Shown here one piece after another: positions 4,090 through 22,907 of a DNA stretch of 64,000 nucleotides. Source of the DNA: an uncultured Planctomycetota bacterium (GTDB lineage: Bacteria > Planctomycetota > Planctomycetia > Isosphaerales > Isosphaeraceae); assembly GCA_963845755.1 (NCBI GenBank), contig CAWJTV010000041.1, forward strand, positions 608,001 through 672,000. Direction: 5' to 3'. Each line of letters starts with the position of its first letter. Position 1 is the stretch's first letter. A program made the position numbers and the translations under genes. The notes under the pieces were generated by a model. It searched no databases. It had not been told where the DNA came from and saw only the letters and a list, made by a program, of their open reading frames with translations.

Positions 4090-4653
4090 TTAGCGACCCA
4101 CCCCCAGCGAATCCGCCACGCGGTTGATGTAGTTGAACCACGACGCGATCAGGGTGATCTGGAGTATGGCGCGGTCGTCGAAGCCCGAGGCGCGGAGCCG
4201 CTCATGGTCATCCGGCGAGACCCTGGTCGCATCCTTGGTGAGCTTGACGACGTAATCGATCATGACCCGCTCCTGATCGGTGATCGGAGCCTTCGTGTAA
4301 TCCTCGCGAAGCGCCTGGACGAGGTCGTCGTCCAGGGTGACCCGACGCAGAAACTCTGCGTGTGAGACAATTCAGTAATGACACTTGTTCGTGAGCGAGA
4401 CCATGGTCGCGATCATCTCATGCTGCCGGCGCCGGAGCGGCAGGTCCGGCGACATGAGGGAGCCGAATGTGGCGAACGCGTGGTAGAGCGCCTGCGGGAT
4501 CAAGGAGTGTGAGGCGACGATCCCCGGCAGGCCCTGGTCGAGCTCCTGCACGGGCTGCGCATATTCCGGGGGATAGAGCGTGCGCTGATCGGCCATCGCC
4601 TTGAGTACTGCGTCATCCTCGCCGTCCAACGGAGTTGTTCGAATCCAGGCCAT
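4090..4653 (-). CDS. AhpD/carboxymuconolactone decarboxylase-family peroxidase-like protein, probable selenoprotein (CHYU; TGA at 4372-4374)
   Basis: The frame continues through TGA: ...[26 protein letters not shown]...[22 protein letters not shown] to TAA at 4090; completes the CxxC-type AhpD motif. Confidence 0.9.
4345..4361 (-). promoter_or_regulatory. Candidate bacterial SECIS hairpin
   Basis: ACGCAGA-GTT-TCTGCGT, 7-bp stem starting 10 nt after the UGA. Confidence 0.7.
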
Positions 4654-4679
4654 GAGTGGAAACCCCTCTCCGGTTCAGT

Positions 4680-6113
4680 TCAAAGGTCGGTGAAGGCGGT
4701 CGCCGCGGAAGATTCCTCGCCCGATCCCTTTGGCAGGCGATCAGCCGCGCCGGCCGGCGGTCGCCGCGACATGACCCATGCGGCGACGGGCACTCCCAGC
4801 AGGACGACGGCGAACCCGATCCCGACGCGCCGGGGATCGCGCAGAGTCTGCAGGAGGATCACGATCACGATCGGGACGAGGGCCAGCAGGAGCGTAACGG
4901 GATAGCCGGGCACGGACAAGGGGGTCTTCGTCAGCCGGCGTGCGCGGCGTTGGAGGACGAAGACCCCGGCCAGGGCGAGCGCCAGGAAGGCCAGGGTCGG
5001 GACCATGAAATAATCGAGGATCTGTTCGAACGTGCCGGTCAAGGTGAGCACGCAGGCCAGCGCGGACTGGATCGCGATGGCCCGCAGGGGAGTCCCCCAG
5101 CGCGGGTCGATCGCGGCGATGGTGGGGAAGAACAATCCATCTCGCGCCATCGCGTAATACACGCGCGGGAATGCCATGAGGACCGCGGCCAGGCTGCCGG
5201 CCACCGAGGCGACCACGCCGGCCGCGAAGAGGATCTCCCCTGTGCCGCCGAAGAGGGCCCGGCCGGCCAGGGCCGCGAACGCCGCCCGGTCCTGGTCCGT
5301 CGTGATCTGGTCCGGCGCGACCAGATAGAGGAACACCACACTGACGGCAATGTAGACCATCGTGACGATCGACACGCCCAGCACCAATGCGCGGGGCATG
5401 GTGCGTTCGGGATCGCGGACCTCGCCCGCGATCTTGCTGGCATCCCACCAGCCCGCGATCGAGATGAAGGCCAGGATCAGGCCGCCGCCCAGGGCCGTCA
5501 GCGGCGGGTCCGAGCCGGCTCGCTGGGTCCAGAACGGCGTCAGGTTCGACCAGTCGCCGCCGCCGGAAGCGAAGCCCCAGACGACGAGGAAACCGAGCAG
5601 GCCCAGCTTCAACCCCGTCAAGGCGCGGAGGACCCCCGAGCCCAGCGCGATGCCCACCATGTTGAACGCGGCCAGGCCCACGATCGCGGCGATGGCCACC
5701 GCCTTCAGTGCCCAGCCGGAGAGCGGTGCCAGGTGCGCGACGTAGTCCGCCAGGCCGACGGCCAGCATCGCGGTCAAACCCGGGTCGGTGACCAGCATCG
5801 AGAGCCACCCGTAGAGGAAGGCCGTGCGCGGTCCGAACGCTTCTCTCAGATAAACGTAGACCCCGCCGGCCTCGGGATAGCGCGCCGCCAGGCCGCCGAA
5901 GCACAGGGCCCCGCCGATGGCGCTGATCCCCATCGCCAGCCAGACCGCCACGATCCATGTTGGCGAGCCCAGCGACTTTGCCATCCCGGCCGGCGCCAGG
6001 AAGATCCCCACGCCGATCACCTCGCCCACGACCAGGGCGGTCGCGGTCGCCAGGCCGAGTCGACGCGCCAGGTCCCGCTTCGGCGCGATGGTATCGTCCG
6101 TCTGGTTGTCCAT
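4680..6113 (-). CDS. APC-superfamily amino acid permease
   Basis: GEVIGVGIF..P, YPEAGGVYVYLREAFG, GEVRDPERTMPRA, PRVYYAMARDGLF; about 12 hydrophobic segments. Confidence 0.93.
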   Translation of the reverse strand: MDNQTDDTIAPKRDLARRLGLATATALVVGEVIGVGIFLAPAGMAKSLGSPTWIVAVWLAMGISAIGGALCFGGLAARYPEAGGVYVYLREAFGPRTAFLYGWLSMLVTDPGLTAMLAVGLADYVAHLAPLSGWALKAVAIAAIVGLAAFNMVGIALGSGVLRALTGLKLGLLGFLVVWGFASGGGDWSNLTPFWTQRAGSDPPLTALGGGLILAFISIAGWWDASKIAGEVRDPERTMPRALVLGVSIVTMVYIAVSVVFLYLVAPDQITTDQDRAAFAALAGRALFGGTGEILFAAGVVASVAGSLAAVLMAFPRVYYAMARDGLFFPTIAAIDPRWGTPLRAIAIQSALACVLTLTGTFEQILDYFMVPTLAFLALALAGVFVLQRRARRLTKTPLSVPGYPVTLLLALVPIVIVILLQTLRDPRRVGIGFAVVLLGVPVAAWVMSRRPPAGAADRLPKGSGEESSAATAFTDL

Positions 6114-6186
6114 GATCCGTCATCCGGAAGAGATGCTCCCGGCCCTCGCCTCGTCGGGGCGGGTTCCGAGAGCATCGATCGTTCAT

Positions 6187-7257
6187 TCAATAGTCCGACG
6201 CACTGATCACTTCGTTGCCATTCCGGGTGCTCAGGGCGCGCCACACGGTCAGGGCCACGCTGTCCTTGATGAACCGGACCGACCCGTCGCCGAACAGGAG
6301 GTTGACCCCGCCGGGGTGAGAGCTCGACGGGGGGAGATCCACGGCCATGTTCGCCATCGAGCCCATCATCATTCCAGAGGACATGCTCGCACAAGTCCGC
6401 GTATTCGGCGTGCCGACGTGGTTGTAGGTCGAGCAGCTCATGTCGCCGATGGCCCAGGTGGCTCCCATCCAGCTCGTGAGGGGCATGGCCATGCTCGGGC
6501 TCATGCTGGTGCACATCTGCAGGGTTTGATCGATGGTCAAGGCGGTGTTCATCATGTACATGTCGTTCTTCAGGTCGGGTGTCCCCTGGCCGCGGCGCCG
6601 CTCGCTGAAGAAGGCGGTGTTGCTGGTCCCGTCGGTCATGCTCGCCAGGTTGACGCAGCTCATGTTGTAGAGCGGGCCCTGGGGCAGATAGCCCGGCGCG
6701 ACCGTGCTGGGGGTCTGCTGGCAGCAGTCGCAGAGCCATGACCCCTCGTTGCCGAAGTAGTTGTTGCCGCCGTCCCAGCCGGGCGGGCCGCTCGCCGAGG
6801 ACGGGTCCGACGGGCACAGGAATGCCGACATCGCGATCCGGCACACCGTGCTGTTCTCGCGGTTCGGGTCCTGGAACGCCGGCATGAACCCCATGTTGTA
6901 ATTGTCCATGAACGGCGTTTCCGGCGGCAGGTTGAAGTTGATCGCGTTGAATAAGGGTGTTTGCTCGAAGAAACCGAGGATCTGGCTGTGAGTGGACCAT
7001 CGGGCGTAGGTCGGCGCCATGGGGATCACACTCATGTAATTATTCCCCTTGCCGAAGGGGAGGCTATTGAGCGCATCGACGTAGTTGTGCAGGGCCAACC
7101 CGAACTGCTTGAGGTTGTTGGTGCACTGGAACCGCCGGGCCGCCTCCCGCGCCGATTGCACGGCCGGCAGGAGCAGCGCGATTAGGACCGCGATGATCGC
7201 GATCACCACCAGGAGCTCGATCAGGGTGAAACCCGATCGGCGATGATTCCGAAGCAT
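6187..7257 (-). CDS. DUF1559 protein, Met/Cys-rich variable region
   Basis: GFTLIELL prepilin motif; [14 protein letters not shown]. Confidence 0.95.
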
Positions 7258-7338
7258 GGATCATCCTTTCATAGGATAAGATCAGGGCCGTTCACGGTGC
7301 AAAGGCCTTCTGAAACGCCCGTCACGTCGGGATGCGAT

Positions 7339-7814
7339 TCACTTCCGAAGCATGTCGCGAAAGACGGTCACCGATGGACTCGTGCCGACGAGGTACCACA
7401 CCGTCTTCTCGGCGGCCTTCCCTTGACTCTTTCCCGGGCCGTTCAGCGTGAGCTTGACCTGGACGCGAAGATTGGCGTCGTAGGCCTTGCCGTCGTCGAT
7501 CACCTGATAGTCGACCAGCCTGGCGCCGGCGGCCCAGTCGAAGTCCTGGACGGTCATCGGCGTCGCGGACGATGCGAGCGACCTGGGATCCTCCCCTTTC
7601 TTCCACTGCTCCAGGGCGGTCTTGAGCGCCTCGCGGGCGCAGGCGGGTTAACGGCATGAGCACCGGCGGAGCCCGAGCAGCCCGAGAAGAACAGGGTAGC
7701 CAGCACGCCGAGGCAGGCGGCCAGCACGCCGAGCGTGCCGTACCAGCTCAAGTCGCGGTCGCCCCGCCGGGCCACGGAATGCGCGAACGTCATCGATTTC
7801 GTCGTGATGATCAT
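7339..7814 (-). CDS. Lipoprotein partner of DUF1559 (frameshifted near 7640, probably sequencing error)
   Basis: FFSGC lipobox; joined frames give AREALKTALEQWKKGE...VQDFDW..GARLVDY, similar to 11306-11713. Confidence 0.75.
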
Positions 7815-7850
7815 CAGTCACCTCCAATTCGTTGATAAGTCCCTGGACGC

Positions 7851-8810
7851 TCAGAAGCTGTCGGCACTGACGATCTCGCCACCGTTCCGAGTCCCCAGTG
7901 CACGCCAGGTTTGCAGGTTGACCGAGTCCTTGACGAACTTGACCGATCCGTCGCCGAAGCAGACATTGACGCCGCCGGGATGACGGCTGCTCGGCGGCAT
8001 CACCGCGCGAAGGGCGATGAAGAACCCGCAGGACCGCGAGTTCGGCGGCGTGACGTGCAGGAAGATGTGCTGCCCATTCAGCCACGGCGCGCCCATGAAG
8101 AGCGGGAACTGATTGTTCAGGTCGAAGATATTCACGGCCTGGCAGATCTGCATGGCCTGGTCGGGCGTCGTGGGGGACGCGGGCGAGAAGAACACGTCCG
8201 CGACCGGGCTGACGACCGCGTTGTTGCCGTCGGCCAGGACCCGCTCGCTGAAGAACGTCGTATTGGATAGCCCGTCGGTGATCGCGGCGAACGTCGTGGC
8301 GCTGTCGCCGTAGAAGATGCCATTGGGCTGGGGCAGCCCGGCGTTGCCGCCGACCGCCTGCTGCCAGACGATGCCGCTGCCCATGTTGGCCATGTAGTTC
8401 GTCTGACCCCCCAACGAGGGGATCGGATCCGGCAGGTCCGAGGGACAGATGAAGCCGTTGATGACCGTCATCATGGCGGTGAAGTTGGTCGGATCCTGAT
8501 AGGAAAAGTCGCAGTTGATCGTGTTATACACGTTCGACTGCTCCAGGTACGGCAAGATCTGCGAGAGGGCCGAAAGCTCGGTGGCGTTGGGGCTGTTGTA
8601 CACCATGTCGGCCCCCGGCAAGGCATTGCGCGACTCGAAATAATTGTGCAGGCCAAGGCCGATCTGCTTGAGATTGTTGACGCACTGAGCCCGCCGCGCG
8701 GCCTCCCGCGCCGCCTGCACTGCGGGCAAGAGCAGCGCGATTAACACGGAGATAATGGCAATGACCACCAGCAGCTCGATGAGCGTGAATGCGGAACGGC
8801 GACGAATCAT
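7851..8810 (-). CDS. DUF1559 protein
   Basis: [14 protein letters not shown]...; [14 protein letters not shown]. Confidence 0.95.
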
Positions 8811-9187
8811 GGGGATCTCCTTCGATCGTATGTGGGTCAATGATGGAAACGGAATTGAAGCGATTGATTGACTCGTGCGCACATTCACACCAGGGACCGG
8901 TCCTCGATGGGTCGAGTCAGGGGCCACGGGCTCTTCATGACGTCACGGAGCCGCGGTGGAATCCAGGCCCTGAGATCGATCCGGTGTCATCGCGAACGGA
9001 GCCGGGTGGGTCAGCTGGTGTGCGACGCGGTAGCCCGATCGAACCGGGATAGCTCTCTGCCCATGCGATGACGATCGAACCTCGACCCAGCAAGGGTCAC
9101 CTCGAACCTGGAGGGAGAAAGGCCCGATTCGCTCGAGTCTTGCGACCATGCGCACATGAAGATTGAGCGGACTGTTGAGATGTCGGG

Positions 9188-9627
9188 TCAGGCGGGAGGA
9201 GGATGGAAGATGGAGGGCTTTTCTCCGGCGGCCCGCTCGGACGGTTCATCGACCGTTCGACTCGGCGGAGTGAGTGGGGGAGGATCGCCAGCGTTGTCAA
9301 GACGCCCCATTGGTCGGAGCGGTCGGAGTCTGGGGAAGCGTCGTCGGGGCCGGCATGGGAACTCGGTTCGAGCAACCCGGACCCGAGCACGGTGTAGGAT
9401 GCTTGGGTCCCGGCTCTCCCGCGGGATCATCCGAGCGTGAGGAAGGCGAGCCGCCGGTAATGAGCTTATCGAGCTGGTTGATGCCGAGGAGCCGATGGGA
9501 ATGCGAGGAGACGAGGTGATTGCAGACGGCCCAGGCGGGGCGAGCCATACCGAGACCGTGGACCAAGAGCAGCATCAGCGCCTCCGGTTGCCCACCGCGT
9601 CACTCGCTCAAAACGCCTGTACTTCAT
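9188..9627 (-). CDS. Leader ORF copy 1 (signal peptide, AxAxCNH, PCSGPGCS, C-terminal FHPP); frameshifted
   Basis: Pieces in successive frames: MKYRRF.., ..ARPAWAVCNHLVSS..PCSGPGCS.., ..DQWGV.., ..KPSIFHPPPA*; paralogous to copies 2-4. Confidence 0.7.
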
Positions 9628-9967
9628 TATTGTCTCACGGCCGAACGGGAGATATCCCGTTCGCGGAAACCCATCTTGAGGTTGATACCTTGAGATGCCG
9701 AGTTGAAGGGACAATGTCCCCACTTTCGTTGAGATAACATACACGCTCGGGGCATGGCATTGCAAGAAGTTACCAGAGAGAAATCCCATGCCCCGTTCCG
9801 AGACGAGGGACCGAGGTCATCGATCGCAGCGAAACGGGTCGTGTCTCCTTCGAGGGCCGCAAATCACTTCTGGCTCATGTGAGGAAGCTCGTGGGCGGGC
9901 AGGTCCCGCGGGAAACCAGTCAGGTCTTCCCGCGGGAATCCCACTCCAGCGAAAGCCACCCCTCCCG

Positions 9968-11281
9968 TCATTTCGGCCGAACGATTCGCTGTCGCGGCGC
10001 GGGACCAGTCTCCGTTCTCACTCTCTGGCTGCGGTCGGCGGCCACCCCGGTGGGTTCGGGACCTTCGGCCGATTCCTGGTCGAGCAAGAGCATCACTAAA
10101 GACTGTTCCAGTTCACCCGGCTTGAACCCCATGGGGCCGCGCCCTCCCTTGTAGACAACCCGGCCATCCCGGTTGATGAGGTAGAGTCGGTCCGGCATGC
10201 CGCTGTAGGCGTGGCCCACCCGATCGTCCAACTCGTCCACGAGCAGGGGCATCGTCATCTTCAGGAGCGTGCAACACTTCTTGGCCACGGCGAATCGCTC
10301 GCCGGGGTCAGTCGGCTGACTGAGGGCAATTCCGGCCTTCTCGTTGCTCGGGAGCGGCCAGCCATCGGTCGGATGGGCCTCGCGGACGTAGACCCCCAGA
10401 AATGCAACGCGATCATCGTACCGCTTGTACATCTCTTCGAGGACCCCAAACTGGGATCGGTAGGGCGGTCAGGTGAAGCTGCCGAAGATCAGGACGACAG
10501 GTTTCTTGCCGCGGTACTGTGAGAGCCCGATGACGCCACTGTGGTCGTGGGTCGTGAGCGTGAAGTCCGGGGCCGGTGCCCCGAGGTCCGGACCTTCGAA
10601 CGTCGAGCCGATATCGCCGTTGAGTATCACTTTGAGTCGATCCACGCGGTCTGCGAAGGTGGCGAATCGGGATCTTGGCCGCTCCGCATTGATGAACATC
10701 GCGTCGCGGAGGTCATCGTTGGTAAGGTGGTCCTTACCCTGGGCGACGATGGTGAAGAATGCCTTCCACTCGCCCTCGGTAATCCGGCCGTTCGCGTCGG
10801 AATCGATCATATCGAACCGGCGGCTCCCCTGCCGTGCCATCTGGTACCACGCCGACCGCTCCGACCAGTCGAAGTCGGTTGCGGCGATCACGCCGTCGTG
10901 GTCGCGGTCGAGCCGGTCCCAGTCGGGGGCCGGTCCCGTGAACTCATGGCGGAGGATCACGCCGTTGCGATCACGGTCGAACCGGGAGGCGAGCCACTCC
11001 CACGTGTAGCGCGAGATGCTGGGGTGATACCAACCGCCCGGCGAACCGCTGGTACGCGGTGCGGTCGAGAAATTGGACCGGATCTGTTCGAACAGTTCGG
11101 GCATGCGGCCGGCGCGGATGGCCGGTGCGATAGCCTGCCGGAGACGGTTCGGATCGATCGCGTTGAGTCGTGGCCGTTGCGGCGCCGGTTTGGCTTCGTC
11201 TGCCGCCGGAGCGGGGACGCCGCCAGCCAGCGCGAACAGGGCCGCCAGCGCGGCGGCCCTGGTTCGTGAGTTCATCGTCAT
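9968..11281 (-). CDS. Secreted EF-hand + iodothyronine-deiodinase-like (thioredoxin-fold) protein, probable selenoprotein (FGSFTUPP; TGA at 10469-10471)
   Basis: ORFs 10469-11281 and 9968-10432 are in the same frame: KPVVLIFGSFT-U-PPYRSQ...VYVREAHPTDGW...YSGMPDRLY; DxDxNG EF-hands; N-terminal signal peptide. Confidence 0.92.
10442..10458 (-). promoter_or_regulatory. Candidate bacterial SECIS hairpin
   Basis: GATCCCA-GTT-TGGGGTC, 7-bp stem (one G-U) starting 10 nt after the UGA; same geometry as 4345-4361. Confidence 0.7.
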
Positions 11282-11305
11282 GTCCTCCAGAGGGTAAGAT
11301 TGTGA

Positions 11306-11713
11306 TTAGTTGAATACCAAGCGAGAGACCGTCCCGACCGGGTTGGTGCTGACCCGATACTCAGCCGATTCCTTCGTCTGTTTCCCCTTGACGTTGGTCA
11401 GCCAGAGTGTGACCTCGAATGCCTGCTGGCCTCCCTTGGGTGAACCCGGGCCTTTCAACTCGAACTTCGTCAGCTTGCTGCCGCTTTCCCATTTCGGCTC
11501 GGAGACCTTGATCGGCGGGTTGGCCTTCTCCATCCCTTCGAGGGTCTCTCCGTTCTGCCAGGATGTGAGCGCCCGCTCCAGGGTTCGTTTCGCCTCGTCG
11601 AGGTTCGGGGGGGACGGTGCCGGGATGCTCTCGCATCCGAATAGGACGATCAGAACGGACGCCGCCAGGACTGACCTGGAGCGAAGGTAGGGTGCGAAAC
11701 GTCGTTCACGCAT
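11306..11713 (-). CDS. Lipoprotein partner of DUF1559
   Basis: LFGC lipobox; AKRTLERALTSWQNGE...W.SG.KL..FEL. Confidence 0.85.
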   Translation of the reverse strand: MRERRFAPYLRSRSVLAASVLIVLFGCESIPAPSPPNLDEAKRTLERALTSWQNGETLEGMEKANPPIKVSEPKWESGSKLTKFELKGPGSPKGGQQAFEVTLWLTNVKGKQTKESAEYRVSTNPVGTVSRLVFN

Positions 11714-11747
11714 TATGAGACCTCCTCGTCAGGTGTTTGCGAATGGA

Positions 11748-12743
11748 TCAATAGTTGTCGCTCGAGATCACCTCACCGCCATTCCTCGAGCCGATCGCGC
11801 GCCAGACGGTCCGATCGATCGTCTGCTTGAAGAAGCGGACCGAGCCGTCGCACATGCCGACGTTCACGCCGCCGGGGTGGAGGCTCGTGGAGGTCAAGGT
11901 GAGCCGTTCTGGGTAGTAATAGCAGGACATCGTGTTGGGTGGGGACACGTGCTTGTAGGGCGTGACCGAAACCGTGCCGGAAATCCAGGGCGTGCCTTCG
12001 GTTGACGATCCATTGGACGGTGTCGCGGTGGGGTCGAGCGCCTGGCAGTACTGGTAGGCCTGCTCCGGAGTGGTCGGGATAACCGTTCCGACGTAGATGT
12101 CGCGGATCTGGTTGGCGACGGCGGTATTGAAGTCGCCCAGCAGCTTCTCGGCGGTCGCCGCCGTGTTGCTCGTGCCGTCTGTGATCTGGGCCAGGGTCAC
12201 CGCGGTGTTGTCGAAGAACGGCCCATCGGGCGCCGGCAGCGACGCGTTATACCCCGACGGGTCAGTCGCGCCCCATTCGTAAGCGATGGTCGTTCCCTCA
12301 CTGAAGCGGTAATCACTGCCTGCCTCGCCCGCGGGCACTTGCTGGGGGTCGGTAGGGCAGAGGAGACCCGAGATGACGGTGGCCAACGCCGTGGTGTTAC
12401 CGGCCTGGTATGTGGTCCCCGACGGCAGGTTGAAGTTGATCGACGCGTAAAGGGGCGCCTGCTCGATGAATGGCAGCAACATGGCGAACGCCGAGTACGC
12501 GTATGGGGTTGGCACCGGGGGTGCGGCTACAAAAACGCTACGGTTGATCGGGAAGCTCCCGAAGGAGCTGTTGTAGTTGTGCAGCGCCAGTCCCAGTTGC
12601 TTCAAGTTGTTGACGCACTGCGCCCGCCGGGCCGCCTCGCGGGCGGCCTGGACGGCGGGCAGCAAGAGTGCGATCAGTACCGAGATGATTGCGATCACCA
12701 CTAAGAGCTCGATCAGCGTGAAACCGGATCGTTGCCTGTTCAT
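11748..12743 (-). CDS. DUF1559 protein
   Basis: GFTLIELL motif; [14 protein letters not shown]. Confidence 0.95.
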
Positions 12744-13074
12744 GACTGGGACTCCTCAAGGTTCGAGATCGTAACAACAGCTTCGTCTTCAAGGACACCG
12801 GAGGGCGACATTGCCGGCGCGTAGGCCGGACCCGAGCCTCTCAGGGAGTGGCTGTGCCGGGTACCGGCCACGGGCGCGTACCATCGTTCGGGGATGGATC
12901 GGGCGCGGTGAGTGGACTCACACCCCGACCGAAACCGGACAACACAGTGCATTGCGTACGACGGTCATGGCGATCGCCGCACGCAAAGCGACGACCGCGG
13001 GACTTCGACTCGGAAGACTTGGGGCGATTTCCTTTCGTGCCAGATGTGCTCAGAAATCGGCATGAACGCGAGGA

Positions 13075-14544
13075 TCATCGGCTCGAGGCCGCCTGGCCGG
13101 GCTTCGGCGGTTCCGAGTCCGGCAGCAAGAAGTCCATGAAAACATTCTCTTTCTCCAGGGCGAGCTGGAAGCCGTTGGAGATCCGGGTCATGTAGTTATC
13201 GTGGCTGGCGGTCCGGATGATGACGAAAGCGCGCTCGGGGCCGAAGTCCCGCTTCAAGCTCTCGATGTCGGCGGCTGAGATCGTCCAGGGAGCGCGAGTG
13301 AGCTTGCGGGCGAAGGCGAACGCCCGCTGCTCTTCCGCCGGGAAGCTCGACCAGTCCTCGCCGGCCAGGAGTTGGGCACGCTCGGCGACCTCGGACTTGG
13401 TCAACCCGTTGCGCTCCATGATCATCTCGGTGTGGCCCATGCAATAGGGGCAATTGATGGAACGCGTGACAACCCAGAACACGCTCGTCAAGAAGACCGG
13501 CTCCAGCCGATTCGTGTTATTGTTCGCGGACCCCCGCGTGCCCTGGCCGCCATACCGGCTCCAGGCCGCGGCCAGCTCGGGCTGATAACCGCTACACACC
13601 AGGTTCCAGATGATTCGGGTCGGGCGCCGGTTCGCATTCGGGATGGGATTCGGATTGTTGCTCGGCGGCGCGACCGCCCTGACCTCCTCCCAGGTCGGGA
13701 CTCGCACCCGCGTCTTTTTGTTCTTCTGCCGCTCCAGCCGCTCCTGCAATTCCTCATAGGGGACGCCGGTCCACTCCAGGTCGTCCTCGATCAGGTCCTT
13801 GCCCGTCGGCTTGGGTAGTGGCGATGGCCGGCTGGTCGGGCGCCGCTGGTTCTGTTGACCGTCGCCCCTGCCGGGCTCGGGGATCACGACCGCATCGATC
13901 GGTGGATACGGCCCGTCCGGCTCCAGCGGGGCACCCAGGCAGAGGAGGAATCGATCCTGGAAGTTCGAGTAGGCCATCAGCATGACCATCGCTGCGGCAT
14001 TCTTCTCGCCGTATGCCTTGGCCAGCTCGGCGAACTCGTCATCGGTGACCGAGTATGAGTTGACGGTCATCTTGCGGGCGAACTCCAGCGCGGCCTTCTC
14101 GGCGGCAGACATCTTGGAGTGATCGCCGCGGCGGAGGGCTTGGATGGCCGCGTCATCGAGCCCGGCGCGTCGGGCATCGGCGAGGGCGTAGGCTTCGGTA
14201 TAGGCGCAGTGGTTGGCGTGCGCGGCGACCCAGCGCATCTCGGCCCGGATCTTGGGGTCGAGCGGGCTGTGCGCCCGATGGACGAAGTCGAGATGGAGCA
14301 AACCGGCGGCCATGCGAGGATTGGGCCCGGCGAGCAGCCTGGCCCATGACGGGAGCGGTTCGCCCGTGCGTTTCTCGACCGGTAATTTCTTCCAGCTCTC
14401 CTCATTACTCAGCGGTGCGAATCCGAGAATGGCAGCACCCCCGGCACCCGCGCTCGGCGGATCGGCCTTCACGGCCACCGGGAACAACCCAGCGCCTATC
14501 GCCAGTAACAATCCGATCCGCGTCATCATCGCGATTCGAGACAT
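13075..14544 (-). CDS. Secreted tandem AhpD/CMD-domain protein, Cys form (NCPYCMGH)
   Basis: Signal peptide; domain 1 ANHCAYT, domain 2 SINCPYCMGH; AALEFARKMT / AFAFARKLT repeats. Confidence 0.88.
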   Translation of the reverse strand: MSRIAMMTRIGLLLAIGAGLFPVAVKADPPSAGAGGAAILGFAPLSNEESWKKLPVEKRTGEPLPSWARLLAGPNPRMAAGLLHLDFVHRAHSPLDPKIRAEMRWVAAHANHCAYTEAYALADARRAGLDDAAIQALRRGDHSKMSAAEKAALEFARKMTVNSYSVTDDEFAELAKAYGEKNAAAMVMLMAYSNFQDRFLLCLGAPLEPDGPYPPIDAVVIPEPGRGDGQQNQRRPTSRPSPLPKPTGKDLIEDDLEWTGVPYEELQERLERQKNKKTRVRVPTWEEVRAVAPPSNNPNPIPNANRRPTRIIWNLVCSGYQPELAAAWSRYGGQGTRGSANNNTNRLEPVFLTSVFWVVTRSINCPYCMGHTEMIMERNGLTKSEVAERAQLLAGEDWSSFPAEEQRAFAFARKLTRAPWTISAADIESLKRDFGPERAFVIIRTASHDNYMTRISNGFQLALEKENVFMDFLLPDSEPPKPGQAASSR

Positions 14545-14920
14545 GGTTTAGACCCTCAGTTAGTTGAGCCTGTTGTAAATTAGCATCAAATTCACATGTT
14601 TTGAAAGTTATGGACGCGTCGTCCCGCACGTGGTCCGAGCCCGTCACGCCTAGAAAGCAGTCGATCCGGACCCGGATCGTTGCGCAGGCGCGATTCGAGT
14701 CGAAGGAGCATGGTGCCGCGACGATGCGGCCCGAGTGATCCTCGACCGGTTCCTGAGTCGCAGCTCGTGGACTTTCCGGACCTAGGGCGCATCGACGCCC
14801 CGGAGTCGGATGTGATCACCGGAGGAGCACACGCCAGGCGATCATTTGGCCCATCGGGCGCGAGACATCATCGAAGATGTCCCTCCCCGCGGCGGGAAAC
14901 CGACGACGGATTCGGCGCAA

Positions 14921-15420
14921 CTACCGAGGGGTCCGCGTCGGGACCGCACGCAGGAAACCCATCGCGACGATCGGGTCTTCAGGCGCACGGAGGAGGAGTC
15001 GAGGCGGATGGAACACTCGGCTCCCCCGATGAACTGGGCGAGGAGCGGTCATTACCCCTGCGAGGAAGGTGGGACATTGCGGGCGCATCGCCCGGAACGA
15101 CGAGCACCACGCCCAGGTATCGATTCGTCCGTCGCTGACGCCGGCCGGAACCGCCGGCGCGGCCGGTTGTCCTGAGCAGAACGCCCCTGAGCAGGGGCGC
15201 GGACGTGAGGGCTCCGGGATGGGATCGGCGGGAATGGCCAGATCGTGCATCAAGGAATCCGTCAACATGGAGGGCTTGTGTCGATCGGTCCGGGACGTGA
15301 CGAGGTGCGAGCAACCGGCCTGCGCCCGGGGGCGCAATCGGTAGCCAGCGCCAGGAGAACCACGAGAGCTCTTGCCGGCGGCGACACCAGTCGTTGAAGG
15401 AAGAAGGACCTCGCCATCAT
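14921..15420 (-). CDS. Leader ORF copy 2 (signal peptide, AQAGCSH, PCSGAFCS, FHPPR); frameshift near 15325
   Basis: MMARSFFLQRL..ALVVLLALA joins RAQAGCSHLVTS...PCSGAFCSGQP...SRVFHPPR; exact stop uncertain. Confidence 0.72.
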
Positions 15421-15507
15421 ACCCGCTTGTTGAGCATCGATCCCGCCCGTCTCGAGAGGGGTACGCAATGAGGCGAACGGGACCGCGAGTTATCAAGAAT
15501 TTCGAAT

Positions 15508-15536
15508 AAGGTATACGTGAACTGATCGGTTTTCAA
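15508..15536 (-). promoter_or_regulatory. Sigma70-like promoter of leader copy 2
   Basis: TTGAAA-17 nt-TACCTT; same layout upstream of copies 3 and 4. Confidence 0.7.
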
Positions 15537-15608
15537 GAGCCTTGTCATTTTTCCGGGGGTCCATGATACTGCGGGCGAGTGGAAAAAGGGGATGGGATTG
15601 TTGTGTCC

Positions 15609-16995
15609 TCACTTGCCACTCGTCGCGGCCTTGTCCTTCTCCCTGGGCGGCTGGTTATCCTTGAAAACATTCTCGCGCTCCAGGGGGATCTGGAAGGCGT
15701 CGGCAACCCGGGTCATATAGTGACAACGGCACGCCCAAAACAGGATGTCGAGTGTGCGTTCGGCGCCGAAGTGATCGATGAGCCGGTTCATGTCCTCGGC
15801 CGTGATCGACCAGGGCTCCCTGGACTGTTTGCGAGCAAAACGGTATGCGGCCCGATCGCCGGGAGGAAAAGAAGACCAATCCCCACTGGCCAACCGCCGT
15901 GTCCGTTCATCGAGTGCCAACTTGTCGAGGCCCGCGACCGCGAGCAGCATTTCGCAGTGCCCCATTCAGTAAAAGCAATGGATCGTGCGCGTCACGATCC
16001 AGAAGAGGCTCTCCTCGAAGACACGGTCCTGTTTCGATTCTTCGCGAAACGCGCGGGTGCAGGCCGACCAGGCCATCGCCAGCTCGGGCTGGTAGCCCAT
16101 GGTCACCAGGCTCCATCGGATGCGGATCGGCTTCTCAGGCCGGGAGACCCCCGGGGGCATCGCGCGGAGCACTTCCTCCCAGGACGGGACGCGAATCCGG
16201 CTGGGCCTTGCCCGCTGTTCCATGAGCCGCCCCTGGAGATCGTTGAACTCCATGGACAGCCAGAAGGGATCGTTGAACTCGCGACGGCTCTTCTGGGATG
16301 GGTCGGCCTTCGGAACGCTTCCGGGCCGGGACCGGTGGCGGTTCGGTCTTGGAATCGAGGCGGACCTCCAGCGGAGGCAACGGGCCACCAGGCTCGATGG
16401 GCGAGCCAAGGGCCAGGAGGAGTCGGTCCTGGAAGTTGGCATGGGCCAGCAGCAAGACCATGGCCACGACCTTCTCTTCGCCGTACCAGCCGATCAGATG
16501 CGCGACCTCGGCATCGGTGACCTCGGAGGCATCCTCGGTCATCTGGCGAGCAAAGTCGAGTGCTGCCCGCTCGGGTTCGGGCAGATCCCGATGGTCCCCT
16601 TTCAGGGAACGGAGCCCGGCCTCATCGAGGCCGTCACGCCGCAGGTCGGCCTCGGCATACGCCATGCTGTATTCGCAACGATTGGCATGACCGGCCACCC
16701 ATCGCATCTTGCCTCGGAGCATCGGCCCGAGGGGATTCCGCGCCCGATGCGCGAAGTCGAGACGGATCATCGCCGCCGTGGTTCGCGGCATCGCACCGGC
16801 CATCGCGCCCGCCCAGGACGGCAGGGCCCGGCCATTTCGCTCCTTGGTCGGCGAGAGCTTTCGCCAGCACTCGTCATCGCTCAAGAGCGGGAAGATGCCG
16901 GCCGCACCGTTGCGGGGCGGTTCGGCCGCCAGGTCGCTCGGCAGCAGGAGGGCCACCATCGGTAGCAGGATGCCGAGATTGATCACTCTAAACAT
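15609..16995 (-). CDS. Secreted tandem AhpD/CMD-domain protein, probable selenoprotein (CFYU; TGA at 15966-15968); frameshift near 16275
   Basis: WIVTRTIHCFY-TGA-MGHCEM aligns to WVVTRSINCPY-C-MGHTEM of 13075-14544; frame continues to 15609. Confidence 0.87.
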
Positions 16996-17071
16996 AAAAG
17001 AGACTCCTCGATTCAATGATCCAGGACCGACGAGAGGATGGATCGGCCTGCCGAAGGCGGTGTCGAGTGAC

Positions 17072-17635
17072 TCATGGGTTTGACGTTGTGGACGGACGGT
17101 TCTTTTGATACGAACGCAGCAACTGCGTGAGCCGCTGTCGCGCTTCTATGCTGAGATCGCAGTACAACTCATATTTCGGTCCGAACATCTTGACCTCTCC
17201 GCATTCCAGGCAAATCAGGGCCTGGGTTGCGGCTTCTCCCGCCTTCCACTCGATGGCGTAGTCGGGAGAGTAACCGCCGCATCGCTTTTTCTCGTCGTAT
17301 CGTTTGAATGACGCCTTGGAGGAAAACAGCGCAGTGAATGGCTCGGAGTCCGTCCCTTGTAACGTACGTTGCTCCTCGTAAAACGGGTAACCATGAAACG
17401 TGATCGTCTTCTTCTGAGTCAGCTCCTGTTCCCGTAATTCCGGTTCCCAAAACTCGCTGGGGAGTCCTTCATGGAGCAAGATATCCCCCGATTTCGGAAT
17501 GCCTGCGAGAAGCTGCGGCAGTCGGGCGAAATCCGTATCGGTTTTCTGCGGTGGTTCAGGCTCGCCCTGGATTTGTGTGGCTTGCGAGCAGCCCGCGAAC
17601 AGGATCGCCGCCAATAACAGCCAGCGACGATCCAT
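17072..17635 (-). CDS. Hypothetical lipoprotein
   Basis: MDRRWLLLAAILFAGC lipobox; KRCGGYSPDY..ICLECGE Cys motif. Confidence 0.75.
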   Translation of the reverse strand: MDRRWLLLAAILFAGCSQATQIQGEPEPPQKTDTDFARLPQLLAGIPKSGDILLHEGLPSEFWEPELREQELTQKKTITFHGYPFYEEQRTLQGTDSEPFTALFSSKASFKRYDEKKRCGGYSPDYAIEWKAGEAATQALICLECGEVKMFGPKYELYCDLSIEARQRLTQLLRSYQKNRPSTTSNP

Positions 17636-17791
17636 GACTGGACTCCAGGCCTTGAATTGCACCTCAGGAACTAGGCCGCGCGAGCCTGCGGTCTCGCTCG
17701 AGGAGCGTCGCCTTCCGAAGAGCCAGCAGGTCCGGGTTGCTCGCATATTCGCGTCAGGTCTCCGCTCGGTTCCCCACATCTCCAGCCTGGA

Positions 17792-18706
17792 TCAATAGCC
17801 GTCGATGATCTGTCCGTCGTTTCTCACAGCCAGCTTGTTGAGGACGCTGAGGTCGGTCGAGTTAATCACGGCCATCACATGGCCGTCGGTGAAAAGAAAC
17901 TGGCAGATGCCGGGGTGGTAGCTGCCGAACTTGCAATGCCACGGGCCACTCAGGTCGTAGAGCCCCTGACCCAGGTTGAATTGCGGAAGACCGGCGATTC
18001 GGGAGAAATTGCGTGGGAAGTCACCGTTGTAGATCGCGCCGTCTCCCCACGACGGTCCGCTCTGGCCGAACTTGCTCAGCGGGACGTGTTTCTCGCCGAC
18101 GAGAAACGTATGACTGGTCCCGTCGGTAACGTCGCGTAACCGAGTTTGCGATTGCGTTTGCACCAGTTGACTGTTGGTGATTTGCGACTGGGCCTGGCAC
18201 ATGGCGCCGTTGCACAACGGATTATCCACGATCGAGCCGGCAAACTGCCCACCATTGCCGGCATAATCCCCCACCACTCCCGGATACTGCTGAGTATCGG
18301 GAATCCCGGTGCTGGAGATCTCGAACTGCGTGCTCAGCATGGGCGGCCGCCGGGTGGGGCAATAGAACGCCTCGACAGCCGTGGCCCTCACCGTCGATTG
18401 CTGCAAGTAATAGGTGTTTGTGAGGTTCCACGCGTTGTAGAGGGGGGTCTGCTCCATGAAAGGAAGGATCTCGATGAACCAGGTGGCGTGCTGAGGTCCG
18501 ACGCGGCTCGAGGGCAGGGTCTGCTGCACCTGCTCGAAGTTATGAATGGCCAGGCCGATCTGTTTGAGGTGGTTGGCACACTGAGCCCGCCGGGCCGCCT
18601 CACGACTCTGCTGCACGGCGGGCAGCAACAAGGCGATCAAGACCGAGATGATCGCGATCACCACCAAGAGCTCGATCAAGGTGAATGCTGCTCGTTGTCT
18701 TCTCAT
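17792..18706 (-). CDS. DUF1559 protein
   Basis: AFTLIELL motif; [18 protein letters not shown]. Confidence 0.95.
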
Positions 18707-19108
18707 GGGTTGAAACTCCGTGTTGAGTCAGAATGAGCCGGCTTGGGTCGAAACGTCTCATGAGAGAGGATTGCGCTGGGATTCTTAGGTAAACGGTCAT
18801 CTCGCGGGCTGCGCGTGCAGGCAGGCGGGATGTCTCCGCCACAAGACCGAATTGAATCGAATGTTTAGGAGCCTGTTCTCGAGTAACAACTCGCGAACTA
18901 TCCCGGTCAGGGCGCAGACGACATTACGGAGTCGGATGCCCGGACCGGACAAGTCTACGCGCAGCAACGATCCCAACGGCGGGCGGGAGACCGCATCGAA
19001 GATGTCCACTCCCATCGCTGCAACTCGACGACGAATCCGGCGCAGGCGACAAGCGAACCCGAGACGAGATCGGCATCTCGGAAGGGACCAACCGCGAGGA
19101 TCAATTCG

Positions 19109-19548
19109 TCATGTCGGCTGGATGAGCGATGGGGGCGGATGGAACACGCCAATCCCTCGCCGCACGGGGCGCATCGCGGTCGCTTCCCAGGAAAGGAAGG
19201 AGGATTGTACGGAGTTCAAGAGGTGGGCCGACGAAGACCAGGGCCAGGAATCAATCCGAACGTCAGTCACCCCGGCCGGGACGGCCGGCACATCCGGCTG
19301 TCCCGAGCAAAACGCGCCCGAGCAGGGGCGCGACGGCGGGCGCTCCGGAAGCCGATCGGAAGGGGCGACCAGATCGCGCACCAAGGACTCGGTCAGCGCG
19401 GAGGACTCGGGCCGATTGGTCAGGGACGTGACGCGGTGCGAGCAGCCGGCCTGCGCGCGGGTGGCGCAATCGCAGCCATCGCCAGGAACGCCAGAACGGC
19501 TCCTGCCGGAATCGAGACCGGTCGCTGGAAGGTAACGGACCTCGTCAT
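19109..19548 (-). CDS. Leader ORF copy 3 (signal peptide, AQAGCSH, PCSGAFCS, FHPPP); frameshift near 19460
   Basis: MTRSVTFQRP..AVLAFLAMAAIA joins RAQAGCSHRVTS...PCSGAFCSGQP...GVFHPPPSLIQPT*. Confidence 0.72.
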
Positions 19549-19638
19549 CGCACCAAGTTCTTGGGGATCGATCGCTTCCATCCCGAAAGAGAGTCGCAAC
19601 GGAGCGATCGAGATCGTGAGCCATCAAGAGTTCCGAAT

Positions 19639-19667
19639 AAGCTACAGGTGAAACGATCGTGTTTCAA
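19639..19667 (-). promoter_or_regulatory. Sigma70-like promoter of leader copy 3
   Basis: TTGAAA-17 nt-TAGCTT. Confidence 0.7.
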
Positions 19668-19807
19668 GGGCCTCGTCATTTTTCCCGGGGCCTGGTGGGT
19701 CGATGGGACTCACCCCCTGCTGAAGTCGTAGTTGGCGTAGCCCTGGTTGGCCAGAAGCAAGGTTGGGTCTAACTTTCCCGGTGGCGGACTCGGTGAGCCG
19801 GCAGGGC

Positions 19808-20355
19808 TCACCGCTTGCCGAAGTCGTAATTCACGTACCCCTGGTTGGCCAGCCGCAATCCCGACTCCTCGTAGGCAGCGGGTCGCTCGGGGCCCAGGTT
19901 CCCAGGCCATCCACGTACCGATTGAACATGCAGAACGCCGCGGCGATCAGGACCGTATCGTGGATCGCCTTGTCATCGGCACCCTCGGCACGGGCGCGAT
20001 CGACGTCCGCCGCCTCGACGAGCCGTCCGTCGCGCCGGACTTTGTCGGCGATTGCGAGCAGAGCCTTCAATTTCGGCGAAACCAGGGCGGAATCGGGATT
20101 CTCGAGTACCTCATCGACAACCACGGTTCTCCCCGTAGTGTACCCGGGCTGCTGCCGCATGCGACTGCGTGCAGAAGTGACACCGATTCCTCGACGACAC
20201 ATAGGAGGCGATCAGCTCGCGCTCGGCCGACGTCAGTGACGACGGCGCTCTCAGAGCGCCTCGGCCAGGCCACTCAGATGGACCTGGGTTTCCGGGTAGG
20301 CGATCATCGGCCCGACGATGCCCGGTACGCCTTCGGGCAATGAGATATGCGCCAT
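19808..20355 (-). CDS. AhpD/CMD peroxidase-related protein, Cys form (NRCHFC); several frameshifts
   Basis: MAHISLPEGVPGI..., ERELIASYVSSRNRCHFCTQSH, DTVLIAAAFCMFNRYVDGL. Confidence 0.85.
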
Positions 20356-20399
20356 GGATGTCTTCCTCCACTGGTTCGTGAGTTCCCGAGAAGTCCGGG

Positions 20400-21682
20400 T
20401 CAGTTCGAGGACGGACGCGTCACATGCGATGACTCGCGCTGAACCTGGACTCCACTGGGCGTTGAAGCCGCGGCCTGGGTCGGCCGCGTCGCACCTTCCT
20501 GAAGGAGCAGGATGAGCGAGTGCTCCAGTTCGGCCGGCTTGAACAGGTACGGGCCGCGTCCACTCTTGAAGCCGACCTTGCCCTCTCGGTCGATGACATA
20601 AAGGCGGCCGGGCATGCCGCTATAGCGGTTGCCGGCCAGGTCGTCGATCGAATCGACGAGCATCGGGAAGCCGAGCCCGAGGAGCCGACTGCAGGTCTGG
20701 GCGACTTCGCGCGCTCGTCGTAGGTCCGGGGCTGGGCCGTGGCGACGTTCGCGCGATCGTTGCTGTCCATCCGCCAGCCATCGGTCGGATGGGCTTCCCG
20801 CACGTAGACCATCACGAACGTGGCGCGGTCCTTGTAACGCCGGTAGAGCTTCTCCATGTTCCCGGCCTGGCTGCGGAACGGCCCGCAGGTGAAGTTCCCG
20901 AAGACCAGGACGACCGGCTTGGGGCCGATCAGTTTCGAGAGCGTGATCTCGCCCTTGCCGTCATTGGTCTTGAGCGTAAAATCGGGCGCACTCTCGTCGA
21001 GCTTCGGACCCGGCTCGAGCGAACCGACCTCTCGACGAAACAGGCCGCGGATCAGCGTCGCCTTCGAAGGCCGCCCCGTGTTCGGGCCGGTCGGAGGCAT
21101 CGGAGGTGGGGCGAACGCCTCTTGCAGGTCGGAGAGCGACAGGAAGTCCTGACCGCCGCTGTCGGCCGCCCGGAAGAACGCGTCAACCTCCTCGCGCGTG
21201 ACCTTGCCGTTGCTGTCGCGATCCATGCGCGAGAATATCAGAGATCCCGGCGAAGGTGCCAGCGAGCTGCCCGAGAAGTCGAAATCGGGCGGTGTCAATA
21301 CACCGTCGTGATTGCGGTCCAGCCGCGCGAAGTCGTCGCCGCCGCCGAACTCCTGGCGCGTGATCTTGCCGTTAGCGTCGCGGTCGAATCGCTTGCGAGT
21401 CGCGTTCCAGTCGAATCGCGTTTGCGAAACGGCCGTGCGAAACCAGCCGAAGTTGGGACTCATCGGTTCTTCTTCGAGAATGCTTGCGAGCATATCGACC
21501 CACTCGGGATGATCGGGCCAGGATTCATTCAGAGCCGCGGCCACCTCTGCCACCTCTCGCTGGTGGGCCTCAGCCGGTGAGGCCGGCGGCTTCCTCGGGT
21601 CGTCGGCCGCCACCAGCGCCGCCACGACCCACGGGAGGAGGATCGTGCTCGCGGTCGTCCGGATTCCAGGTCGTCTGTTCAT
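20400..21682 (-). CDS. Secreted EF-hand + deiodinase-like protein, Cys form (FGNFTCGPF); frameshifts near 20700
   Basis: Paralog of 9968-11281: KPVVLVFGNFTCGPFRSQ...VYVREAHPTDGW...YSGMPGRLY. Confidence 0.88.
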
Positions 21683-22219
21683 CAGGAGGCTCCTCAGTTC
21701 TTTGATTCGTGTCTGGGCAGGAAATGGGGCGCGCGGTCGGCCGGGGGCAGCACTCCGGAGCGGGAATCGGCGCGGTCCGATGGGCGCGCGCGGGGTCGTC
21801 CTCGGCACAGGGCGAGGTATCCGAGAGCGGGACTACCTGGGTTGGCGGAGGCGCGTCCTTCTCGATCCGCCTCGCCATGAGTCGCACGGCGATGAAATCG
21901 GCCAGGAATCGCCTTGAAATATTGTTGCTGTCATCCATAGCAGGCAATCCTTTCACGCTCGGTTTCTCGGAGGCATACTGACGAATGGCGAGCGCAAACG
22001 AGCTCTGTGTAACCCGCCTCGAGTGGCCCCTCGACCCCCTTGGGGCTGGGTCACCGGAGCCTTGCAACAGGGTAAGGAGAGTCGGTGGACCGAGATCGAT
22101 CGATCACGATTCGAGATCGAGCATCGTGCTGCTCGCAATCACCTGCGATCGCCGGTCCGATGGGATACGCGCCGCGCACGGATTGAAACGATCCCACCGG
22201 GTCAACTCCGTTGAGGCGA

Positions 22220-22672
22220 TTAAGAGTGTGAATGCGACTGGAGATGCCGGGGAGGCCGTTCCGGCGGAGAGGAATTGTGCCGTGGATGTGCCCGGAGGAT
22301 CTCGGGCCGTATCTCGGTCGAGTTCGGGCTATCCCAGCCGGGTGCTACGGTTGTGCAGCACCAGGATTCACTTCGCAAGGAAGTCGCTGGCGATGGTGCC
22401 GGCGGCAACGGTTGTCCCTGCGAGCAGGATAGGCCGGAACACGGTTGGTTGCGCCGGGGCCCGGGCAGCGCCGAATCGCGAGGGCTGGCGAGGGAAGCAT
22501 CGAGCCATGCCAGGTCAGCGAGCGATTCTTGGACCGATCGGCTCAGTTGAGAAGTGACGCCATGACTGCAACCCGCCCGAGCTGTTGAGGGCGCAATGCC
22601 CCCGACCGTCAGGAGCACGCAGAATGCCCCCGTAACCCAGTGCTTCGCTCGCTGGCGGAACGAAGAGATCAT
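22220..22672 (-). CDS. Leader ORF copy 4, intact 150 aa (signal peptide, ARAGCSH, PCSGLSCS, ERPPR)
   Basis: MISSFRQRAKHWVTGAFCVLLTVGGIAPSTARAGCSH...PCSGLSCSQGQP...SWCC...PERPPRHLQSHSHS. Confidence 0.8.
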   Translation of the reverse strand: MISSFRQRAKHWVTGAFCVLLTVGGIAPSTARAGCSHGVTSQLSRSVQESLADLAWLDASLASPRDSALPGPRRNQPCSGLSCSQGQPLPPAPSPATSLRSESWCCTTVAPGWDSPNSTEIRPEILRAHPRHNSSPPERPPRHLQSHSHS

Positions 22673-22718: not shown

Positions 22719-22747
22719 AGGCTATCCGGTAAAAGGTCGGATTTCAA
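22719..22747 (-). promoter_or_regulatory. Sigma70-like promoter of leader copy 4
   Basis: TTGAAA-17 nt-TAGCCT. Confidence 0.65.
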
Positions 22748-22907
22748 GGGACTGCCGAGACTCCGGTCGTTTTTCGAGACCGAGGCCATTCCTCTTTGCG
22801 GAAGGGCCGGGAGTCCAGGTCGCGCCGAGGCGCGAGGCTCGCAAGGCGAACTACGCCGGGAAATCTCCCGATGTGCGCAGGACGCTGCGATCCACCGGAG
22901 GAACACG

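Follow-up and report, generated by a model that had tools for sequence, protein, structure and literature searches.

Two described systems stand closest to the genes treated here. CruR (Bp2923) of Bordetella pertussis, a DUF2946 (PF11162) protein, is encoded by the first gene of its operon; it is about 145 amino acids (aa) long and poorly folded, carries a signal peptide, and has a CxxC motif at a fixed distance from the PP of a C-terminal RAPP (45 residues lie in between, and the spacing matters), with a bias of C over G near the 3' end of the gene and Rho termination in a long spacer of 162 nt that precedes genes for TonB receptors and copper chaperones (Roy et al. 2022, PMC9426467). CutF of Rhodobacter capsulatus and the CutF-like class combine a Sec signal, a Cys/His metal-type motif and a non-RAPP C-terminal polyproline with a same-strand next gene within 1000 nt, mostly across a spacer of less than 100 nt; CutF is reported to pause weakly by default, with the pause prolonged by a ligand, the output is release of the ribosome-binding site, and the sensing has been proposed to be periplasmic (bioRxiv 10.1101/2022.11.11.516240 = PMC9973294; bioRxiv 10.1101/2025.02.05.636593). 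In addition, DUF1559 genes are enriched downstream of upstream open reading frames (uORFs) ending in RAPP (112 for RAPP versus 68 for AAPP; Fujiwara et al. 2025, PMC12992588, Fig. 4B data), and uA_LPPP, a planctomycete non-RAPP polyproline arrest peptide, has been shown to stall ribosomes (Fujiwara et al. 2024, PMC10987492). The present analysis concerns four paralogous leader genes (u1 to u4) in a 64,000-nt stretch, the window, of contig CAWJTV010000041.1 (608001-672000) from an uncultured planctomycete (assembly GCA_963845755.1). The favoured model, given a probability of about 0.5, takes each leader for the opening gene of one of four operons in tandem and for a nascent-chain sensor that works in cis.

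The leaders share with CruR the first position in the operon, the size, the signal peptide, the poor fold, the fixed Cys-to-PP distance, the long spacer, the C-over-G bias near the 3' end and the presence of Rho. Unlike CruR, they carry a CxH (a lone Cys with His at +2) together with a CxGxxC, end in [H/R]PP[R/P], place the Cys motif 57-58 residues from PP against 46 when CruR is counted alike, have a median spacer of 376 nt, and precede genes for DUF1559, AhpD, deiodinase-like and CRTAC1-like proteins. With CutF and its class they have in common the Sec signal, the Cys/His motif, the non-RAPP polyproline, the same-strand next gene within 1000 nt and, putatively, periplasmic sensing; the rules for CutF-like proteins (less than 150 aa, signal, PP among the final 15 residues, a gene on the same strand no more than 1000 nt away) describe them as well, with lengths partly just above 150, but their spacers are much longer and no leader-linked stem-loop shielding the Shine-Dalgarno (SD) sequence was found in 62 folded loci. 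The likeness to CruR that a preceding sequence-only reading had proposed, and that to CutF, are well supported by the anatomy and the fixed Cys-PP spacing; the tail is [H/R]PPR and not RAPP. Neither CutF paper names Planctomycetes in its main text, and three supplement files of PMC9973294 (8,054 characters) hold no planctomycete term. The RAPP/RGPP uORFs found before DUF1559 genes (PMC12992588) have the same downstream family and a similar size and layout but were chosen by RAPP/RGPP, which the leaders lack; none of 30 rows judged by eye, out of 58 places in the source data of that paper, shows the CxGxxC/[H/R]PP layout. As in the RQH family (PMC10987492), R and H alternate at the first motif position (compare RAPP/HAPP), whereas RQH and uA_LPPP precede secA or secDF and the leaders have mostly Arg as the fourth residue and a Cys sensor module.

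A class-wide leader family with a fixed Cys-to-PP distance

All four leaders lie on the minus strand and share, as had been noted from the sequence, a hydrophobic N-terminus ending in AxA, VCNH or GCSH, PCSGxxCS, a Trp and an xPP tail, although a single open frame is present only at 22220-22672 (u4). With u4 as query, phmmer returned 291 representatives at E up to 0.001, and C35, C78, G80, C83, P140 and P141 are invariant in an alignment of 94 sequences. Of 121 genomes from the bacterial family (Isosphaeraceae, a naming based on named protein hits such as Aquisphaera insulae), 92 contain matches to it, as do 121 of 301 genomes of the class and, in an even sample of the phylum, 10 of 401, all ten inside the class; a single genome has up to 14 matches. 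The 94 members have no Pfam or NCBIfam family in common. The ESM Atlas places them among unnamed Planctomycetota clusters (0.97), the nearest named sets being DUF2946, DUF6660, CzcI and DUF6769 at 0.89-0.90 with few shared features, which serves as a lead only. Among the entries listed in literature searches on arrest peptides, upstream ORFs and ribosome stalling, DUF1559, DUF2946/DUF6660, Isosphaeraceae transcriptomes and copper, and the tail motifs, none describes the family; the list of CutF-like proteins may hold members. It is a real, class-wide, unnamed planctomycete family.

The leaders are not members of DUF2946, to which the sequence-only reading had likened them: PF11162 matches none of the four window frames and none of the 94 members at E up to 1, and in a genome scan it matched other loci and none of the leaders. 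When compared with planctomycete DUF2946-like leaders, the family gave a best cross-comparison of hidden Markov models (HMMs) of 8.2 bits and an hhalign probability of 6.8% over 7 columns.

Leader loci at the DNA level are the best 147 among some 365 matches of a family-derived HMM; with loci collected earlier they make 182 records, 162 of them full and distinct. In these 162 copies the second Cys of CxGxxC precedes the first Pro by 57 residues in 117 and by 58 in 32 (57-58 in 149), and an independent protein search yielded a spacing of 56-58 in 121 of 135 scorable proteins (of 153). The distance from the first Cys to PP ranges over 92-120 residues, and the commonest residue stays below 40% at most positions of the linker, in which a Trp at -36 (130 of 149 leaders) and a Pro at -10 (72%) recur. 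The source genome has 62,133 six-frame open reading frames (ORFs) that reach 110 aa or more. Among them a CxGxxC-to-[HR]PP distance of 57 is found four times, each time in a member of the family, and each other distance from 40 to 79 in 0-3 cases; the pattern is not due to chance.

The tail consensus is [I/V/L][F/E/D][H/R]PP[R/P], with FHPPR in 71 of the 162 copies, ERPPR in 35, FHPPP in 21, DRPPR in 13, FRPPR in 7 and others in 15, in a search that required [RHE]PP. PP is followed by Arg in 81% and by Pro in 14% (u1 and u3 carry HPPP), and the tail is at most 13 residues long in 158 of 162 copies; that of u2, with 26 residues, is unusually long (more than 13 in 4 of 162). All four Pro codons occur at PP, so the constraint acts on the protein. 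CCT is about threefold enriched there (94/298 versus 227/2091 in the leader body), and CCC and CCU have been described as slower in E. coli (PMC12856214). Leaders are 138-154 aa long (5-95%). Their signal peptides, judged by pattern and hydropathy, show AxA-xC in 142 of 153 cases and a median best 12-residue Kyte-Doolittle value of 2.47, and His stands two residues past the first Cys in 86 of 142. The AlphaFold model of u4 consists of a signal helix and short helices with no folded core (predicted template-modelling score, pTM, 0.23).

In the same bacterial family, 20 loci of DUF2946-like RAPP/RGPP leaders were examined, and the spacing is 46 in 13 of 16, which agrees with the 45 intervening residues of CruR. 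The 11 additional residues of the present family fit a trans-membrane reach, because about 50 extended residues bridge the peptidyl transferase centre and the periplasmic end of SecYEG (bioRxiv 2021.02.06.430026); on this count the Cys cluster would have just reached the periplasm once PP sits in that centre. One such DUF2946-like leader (L200:1468-1830, contig C11 at about 86640-87002), a CxxC...RAPP protein with a spacing of 46, lies 391 nt before a DUF1559 gene in the source genome, in which both leader types therefore coexist.

Outside the window the same genome holds a fifth copy on contig C28 (L029:5600-14000; IERPPR; split), followed by a split DUF1559 gene, two lipoprotein-like ORFs and a CusB/CusA-like heavy-metal pump of the resistance-nodulation-division type, and a sixth on contig C14 at 48358-48895 on the minus strand (L117; IFHPPR; split inside the Cys motif), which precedes a CRTAC1/ASPIC-UnbV-like gene. 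A divergent leader-like ORF on contig C5 (593426-593917, plus strand) has a signal, AGCH, PCSG, one Cys fewer and IDRPPR near its end, and matches the family model weakly.

Promoters, spacers and the genes behind the leaders

Motif discovery upstream of the leaders gave CTTGcaa, and a sigma70-like two-box model, CTTG[C/A]AA-16/18-TAnnnT, was used with a cut of 9. Under cross-validation, 66% of 149 leader upstream regions score above 9, compared with 1% of shuffles and none of 83 spacers before DUF1559 genes; among 64 regions upstream of control DUF1559 genes the share is 6%. A promoter is predicted before each window leader and in none of the four spacers (Table 1); all four predictions come from the family-trained model alone, and a scan for generic sigma70 promoters did not return any of them. 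For the 154 leader copies followed by 900 nt or more of sequence, the next gene shares the leader's strand in 146 and has the opposite one in 1, and none is called in 7, so that the positional conservation proposed as a check is found, with the promoter preceding the leader and not the next gene. The related claim that each leader heads an operon gains from the promoter-like site before each but holds only within a same-strand tandem array.

Spacers range from 135 to 634 nt with a median of 376 (n=84), and the stop-to-ATG gaps of u1 to u4 (377, 376, 402 and 537 nt) match the roughly 380-540 nt reported earlier. A G-poor, TCATT-like stretch lies 30-65 nt before the DUF1559 ATG in 66% of 83 spacers versus 34% of 64 controls, and is the most frequent local partner of the SD sequence in folds. 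As further observations, leaders at three loci (L130, L179, L096) precede a gene for an extracytoplasmic-function (ECF) sigma factor, a possible regulatory cascade; two loci (L114, L126) have divergent leader pairs placed back to back; and at two (L097, L101) no same-strand next gene is called.

The next gene encodes a DUF1559 protein in 88 cases, an AhpD/CMD protein in 17, an EF-hand/deiodinase-like protein in 10 and some other product in 26, about 13 of these being CRTAC1/ASPIC-UnbV-like (four Pfam-confirmed). In a FastTree phylogeny of 67 leader-linked and 63 other DUF1559 proteins, the latter from the source genome alone (163 matches to PF07596) while kin share labels, 63 of the 67 leader-linked sequences fall in one clade of 66 rows (Shimodaira-Hasegawa support 90), whose remaining three rows are operon genes of this window; the DUF1559 protein behind u3 (17792-18706) does not belong to the main leader clade and stands apart on a long branch. 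The EF-hand/deiodinase-like gene at 9968-11275 (minus strand) has an in-frame TGA (10469-10471) at the position of the catalytic Cys, beyond which the frame continues. Among 23 distinct homologous motifs this codon is TGC in 20, TGT in 1 and TGA in 2, one TGA coming from another genome; selA and selB are present in the source genome, and the product is probably a selenoprotein with TGA read as selenocysteine.

Table 1. Leaders, predicted promoters, spacers and neighbouring genes in the window.
Feature	Position	Strand	Details
Leader u1	9188..9627	-	ATG at 9627; VCNH; PCSGPGCS 9369-9392; FHPPPA-stop 9194-9208
Leader u2	14921..15420	-	ATG at 15420; PCSGAFCS 15173-15196; FHPPR 14999-15013
Leader u3	19109..19548	-	ATG at 19548; GCSH; PCSGAFCS 19304-19327; FHPPP 19130-19144
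Leader u4	22220..22672	-	ATG at 22672; intact 150-aa ORF; signal peptide ending ARA; GCSH 22562-22582; PCSGLSCS 22421-22444; Trp; ERPPR 22247-22261
Predicted promoter of u1	9736..9766	-	CTTGCAA-18-TATGTT, score 13.3
Predicted promoter of u2	15508..15537	-	CTTGAAA-17-TACCTT, score 12.3
Predicted promoter of u3	19639..19668	-	CTTGAAA-17-TAGCTT, score 12.9
Predicted promoter of u4	22719..22748	-	sigma70-type; CTTGAAA-17-TAGCCT, score 12.2
Spacer after u1	8811..9187	-	377 nt; best promoter score 3.7
Spacer after u2	14545..14920	-	376 nt; best promoter score 7.6 (<9); terminator-like hairpin 14662-14679
Spacer after u3	18707..19108	-	402 nt; best promoter score 2.5
Spacer after u4	21683..22219	-	537 nt; best promoter score 4.0
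Genes behind u1	4372..8810	-	DUF1559 7851-8810; lipoprotein-like ORF; DUF1559 6187-7257; APC amino-acid permease 4680-6113; small ORF 4372-4653, called AhpD-like by resemblance (its homolog has no Pfam/NCBIfam hit)
Genes behind u2	9968..14544	-	large CMD/AhpD-like 13075-14544; DUF1559 11748-12743; lipoprotein-like ORF; EF-hand/deiodinase-like gene
Genes behind u3	15609..18706	-	DUF1559, prepilin-type, 17792-18706; lipoprotein-like ORF; large CMD/AhpD-like gene (broken)
Genes behind u4	19814..21682	-	EF-hand + deiodinase/thioredoxin-like (one break), then small AhpD/CMD (about three breaks)
rtcA	22908-24114		split
GH81 + Ig-like + FG-GAP gene	25563-35107	-	large, secreted; split over two frames
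Kinase/WD40 gene	36151-39823		split

Frame breaks in the source genome

The source genome is a 14.3-Mb assembly in 49 contigs, 88% complete, and five of its six leader copies (u1, u2, u3 and those on C28 and C14) are broken. The lengths of u1, u2 and u3 (440, 500 and 440 nt) are not multiples of 3; u1 requires three frame changes, near 9581, 9337 and 9271, u2 a net one near 15321-15343, and u3 one near 19457; the sequence-only reading does not mention these breaks. At the DNA level u1 is 81.5% identical to an intact ortholog (L074). The three window copies are nevertheless likely to be intact in the cell, the breaks being most likely assembly errors. Every motif and the promoter are kept in the broken copies, several breaks fall in runs of C or G, the nearby CMD, deiodinase-like and rtcA genes and selB are likewise split, and no more than 64 of the 99 starts of DUF1559 genes lead to the H-X9-DG motif without a change of frame. 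In one short-read contig (depth 4.9), otherwise identical, an extra base at 20253 restores the frame of the neighbouring AhpD gene. In ten near-complete relatives none of 82 matches is split and all span the model in one frame (the single stop listed for some is the terminal stop, in copies cut out as a subset of the 82), whereas five assemblies of few contigs and low completeness have 9 partial loci out of 36.

That the three copies are true pseudogenes, and the control of their operons lost, appears considerably less likely, and it has the break frequency on its side: 5 of 6 copies against about 17-25% expected, roughly p 0.005, where the lower figure comes from a DUF1559 break rate that does not exceed 0.42 per kb (17% in 450 nt) and perhaps 25% is reached when 1.6-fold more C/G runs in the leaders are allowed for. 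In the one DNA run the leader breaks have no read coverage, and a second stretch compared with reads showed no indels in the pieces listed. Programmed frameshifting was rejected, because the breaks of u2 and u3, though similarly placed, come from different indels and the relatives are intact.

Proposed mechanism, alternatives and the possible signal

The anatomy, the 57-58 spacing, the placement of the predicted promoters, the gene order and the linked DUF1559 clade are features read from sequence, on which the favoured model builds as follows. The leader would in all likelihood act in cis on its operon, and the ribosome would probably pause at [H/R]PP[R/P], helped by Trp -36 and Pro -10. About 50 extended residues would then span the ribosome and SecYEG and bring CxGxxC (-62/-57) and CxH (near -105) just outside the membrane, a placement from which a periplasmic signal seems somewhat the better guess. 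A pause that is otherwise weak and resolved by EF-P could be prolonged by metal binding or disulfide formation, as in CutF, and the ribosome so parked could cover a C-rich, poorly structured stretch and block Rho termination in the spacer, as in CruR; that Cys sensing and Rho antitermination switch on the operon together is rated slightly short of an even chance, and the full mechanism at about even. Rho attenuation is weakly favoured, by elimination and by faint positive signs: the spacers are long, terminator-like hairpins occur in only 5 of 83 spacers, the C/G ratio at PP is 2.1, the C-over-G skew at fourfold sites is +0.13 in the last 33 codons versus -0.02 (n=162), and rho is present in the source genome. 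An intrinsic terminator in the spacer was rejected, the five sense hairpins standing beside one in antisense and a window scan giving 11 sites versus 9.8 expected.

Several observations weigh against this model. The low structure at PP equals that of shuffles and is therefore compositional, the C/G excess of the spacers is small (1.14 versus 1.04), an SD-like word precedes only 31% of 153 leaders, and the leader counts, taken from HMM-picked loci in related genomes, are not independent. ApcA, ApdA and ApdP tolerate no replacement of the Arg in R-A-P (PMC12992588), and the matching residue is F, E or D in the leaders; PPR is listed as stalling weakly, with EF-P resolving the stall (PMC11381339), and two matches to efp are present in the source genome. 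When the register is shifted, [H/R]-P-P-x agrees with [R/Q/H]-[A/G]-P-P at positions one to three, with mostly Arg at the fourth, and a change of Ala to Pro in R-A-P-P is partly tolerated (PMC12992588). Given the weak PPR and the missing Arg, a weak pause prolonged by a ligand, as in CutF, fits better than a strong default arrest.

As to the signal, the chances of copper and of oxidation are about even. The CxH and CxGxxC set may resemble a soft-metal site, and the copper signal suggested by the sequence-only reading finds a faint echo in the CusA/CzcA-like pump behind the C28 copy; the operons otherwise encode AhpD-like and deiodinase/thioredoxin-like proteins. Also to be counted against copper are that no copper-homeostasis gene is the first gene after a leader in the 154 copies, that a single cluster with a heavy-metal-binding domain occurs among 26 neighbour representatives, and that the CusB/CusA-like pump is the only one near leaders and lies below the family cut-offs. 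Downstream proteins match AhpD/peroxidase-related and deiodinase/thioredoxin-like models, and such products point to thiol or peroxide stress.

Three other explanations have been weighed, all of them unlikely. A paused ribosome might refold the spacer and unmask the next gene's ribosome-binding site, as in CutF or SecM. CutF itself works in this way, the HPP codons can be read as an anti-SD sequence that pairs with the SD sequence at a probability above 0.3 in 7 of 62 folded loci, and the TCATT-like stretch is commoner than in controls; yet duplexes between PP window and ribosome-binding site do not score better in cognate than in non-cognate combinations (mean z -0.07, p 0.83, n=80), so that long-range anti-SD pairing by the HPP codons found no support. 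When the ribosome footprint is held single-stranded, SD accessibility moves merely from 0.35 to 0.37 and gains more than 0.2 at just 2 of 62 loci (62 of 80 folded). The leader spacers of 135-634 nt are also long for this output, which is rated the least probable of the three by a small margin. Marginally better placed, though still improbable, is a monitor of secretion or oxidative folding with no small ligand, in which Sec pulling and a DsbA-type disulfide release the pause by the logic of SecM and VemP: the strong hydrophobic signal of the leaders, the prepilin, lipoprotein or signal-like N-termini of most downstream products and the contribution of a Cys pair in LepB to the force on an arrest peptide speak for it, but no Sec, YidC or Dsb component is encoded downstream, and the conserved His that follows the first Cys at +2 resembles a metal ligand.

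The leaders might, finally, encode an ordinary small secreted Cys/His protein, a metal chaperone or a partner of DUF1559 or AhpD proteins, co-transcribed from the first gene, in which [H/R]PPR would be a tag for sorting or binding. A cleavable signal, invariant Cys and fixed operon membership would suit this, and [H/R]PPR is no proven arrest motif; on the other side stand the lack of a predicted folded core, the fixed-length, sequence-free linker to PP, which suits a ribosome ruler better than a fold, the constant first position ahead of a long, promoter-less spacer, and a G+C content at third codon positions below that of the next gene (0.75 versus 0.82, n=80). Such a protein seems hardly more probable than the refolding output.

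The cis-acting sensor remains the favoured model, and a bolder version of it, doubtful as a whole, takes the leaders for class-wide trans-membrane redox sensors in which a nascent chain of set length would bring three Cys just outside SecYEG and Cys oxidation, not metal, would set the pause at a new arrest motif, [H/R]PPR. The pause would gate Rho termination of up to 10-14 operons per genome, a regulon for a single DUF1559 subfamily dedicated to it and for Cys/Sec peroxidase-like proteins.

CruR and CutF already represent this general kind of system, and DUF1559 genes behind RAPP leaders stand in published tables. Surveys of arrest peptides looked for RAPP/RGPP and so missed this family, which supplies a candidate non-RAPP arrest motif and a natural ruler comparison within the same genomes (46 versus 57 residues, with predicted cytoplasmic versus periplasmic sensing). 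It also gives a handle on DUF1559, a large planctomycete family with no function assigned, in that one of its clades is marked as putatively co-regulated with redox proteins of the AhpD-like and deiodinase-like kinds. If the bolder version is true, planctomycetes would possess a ribosome-based sensor of the periplasmic thiol state, and a clade of DUF1559 proteins would have a function.

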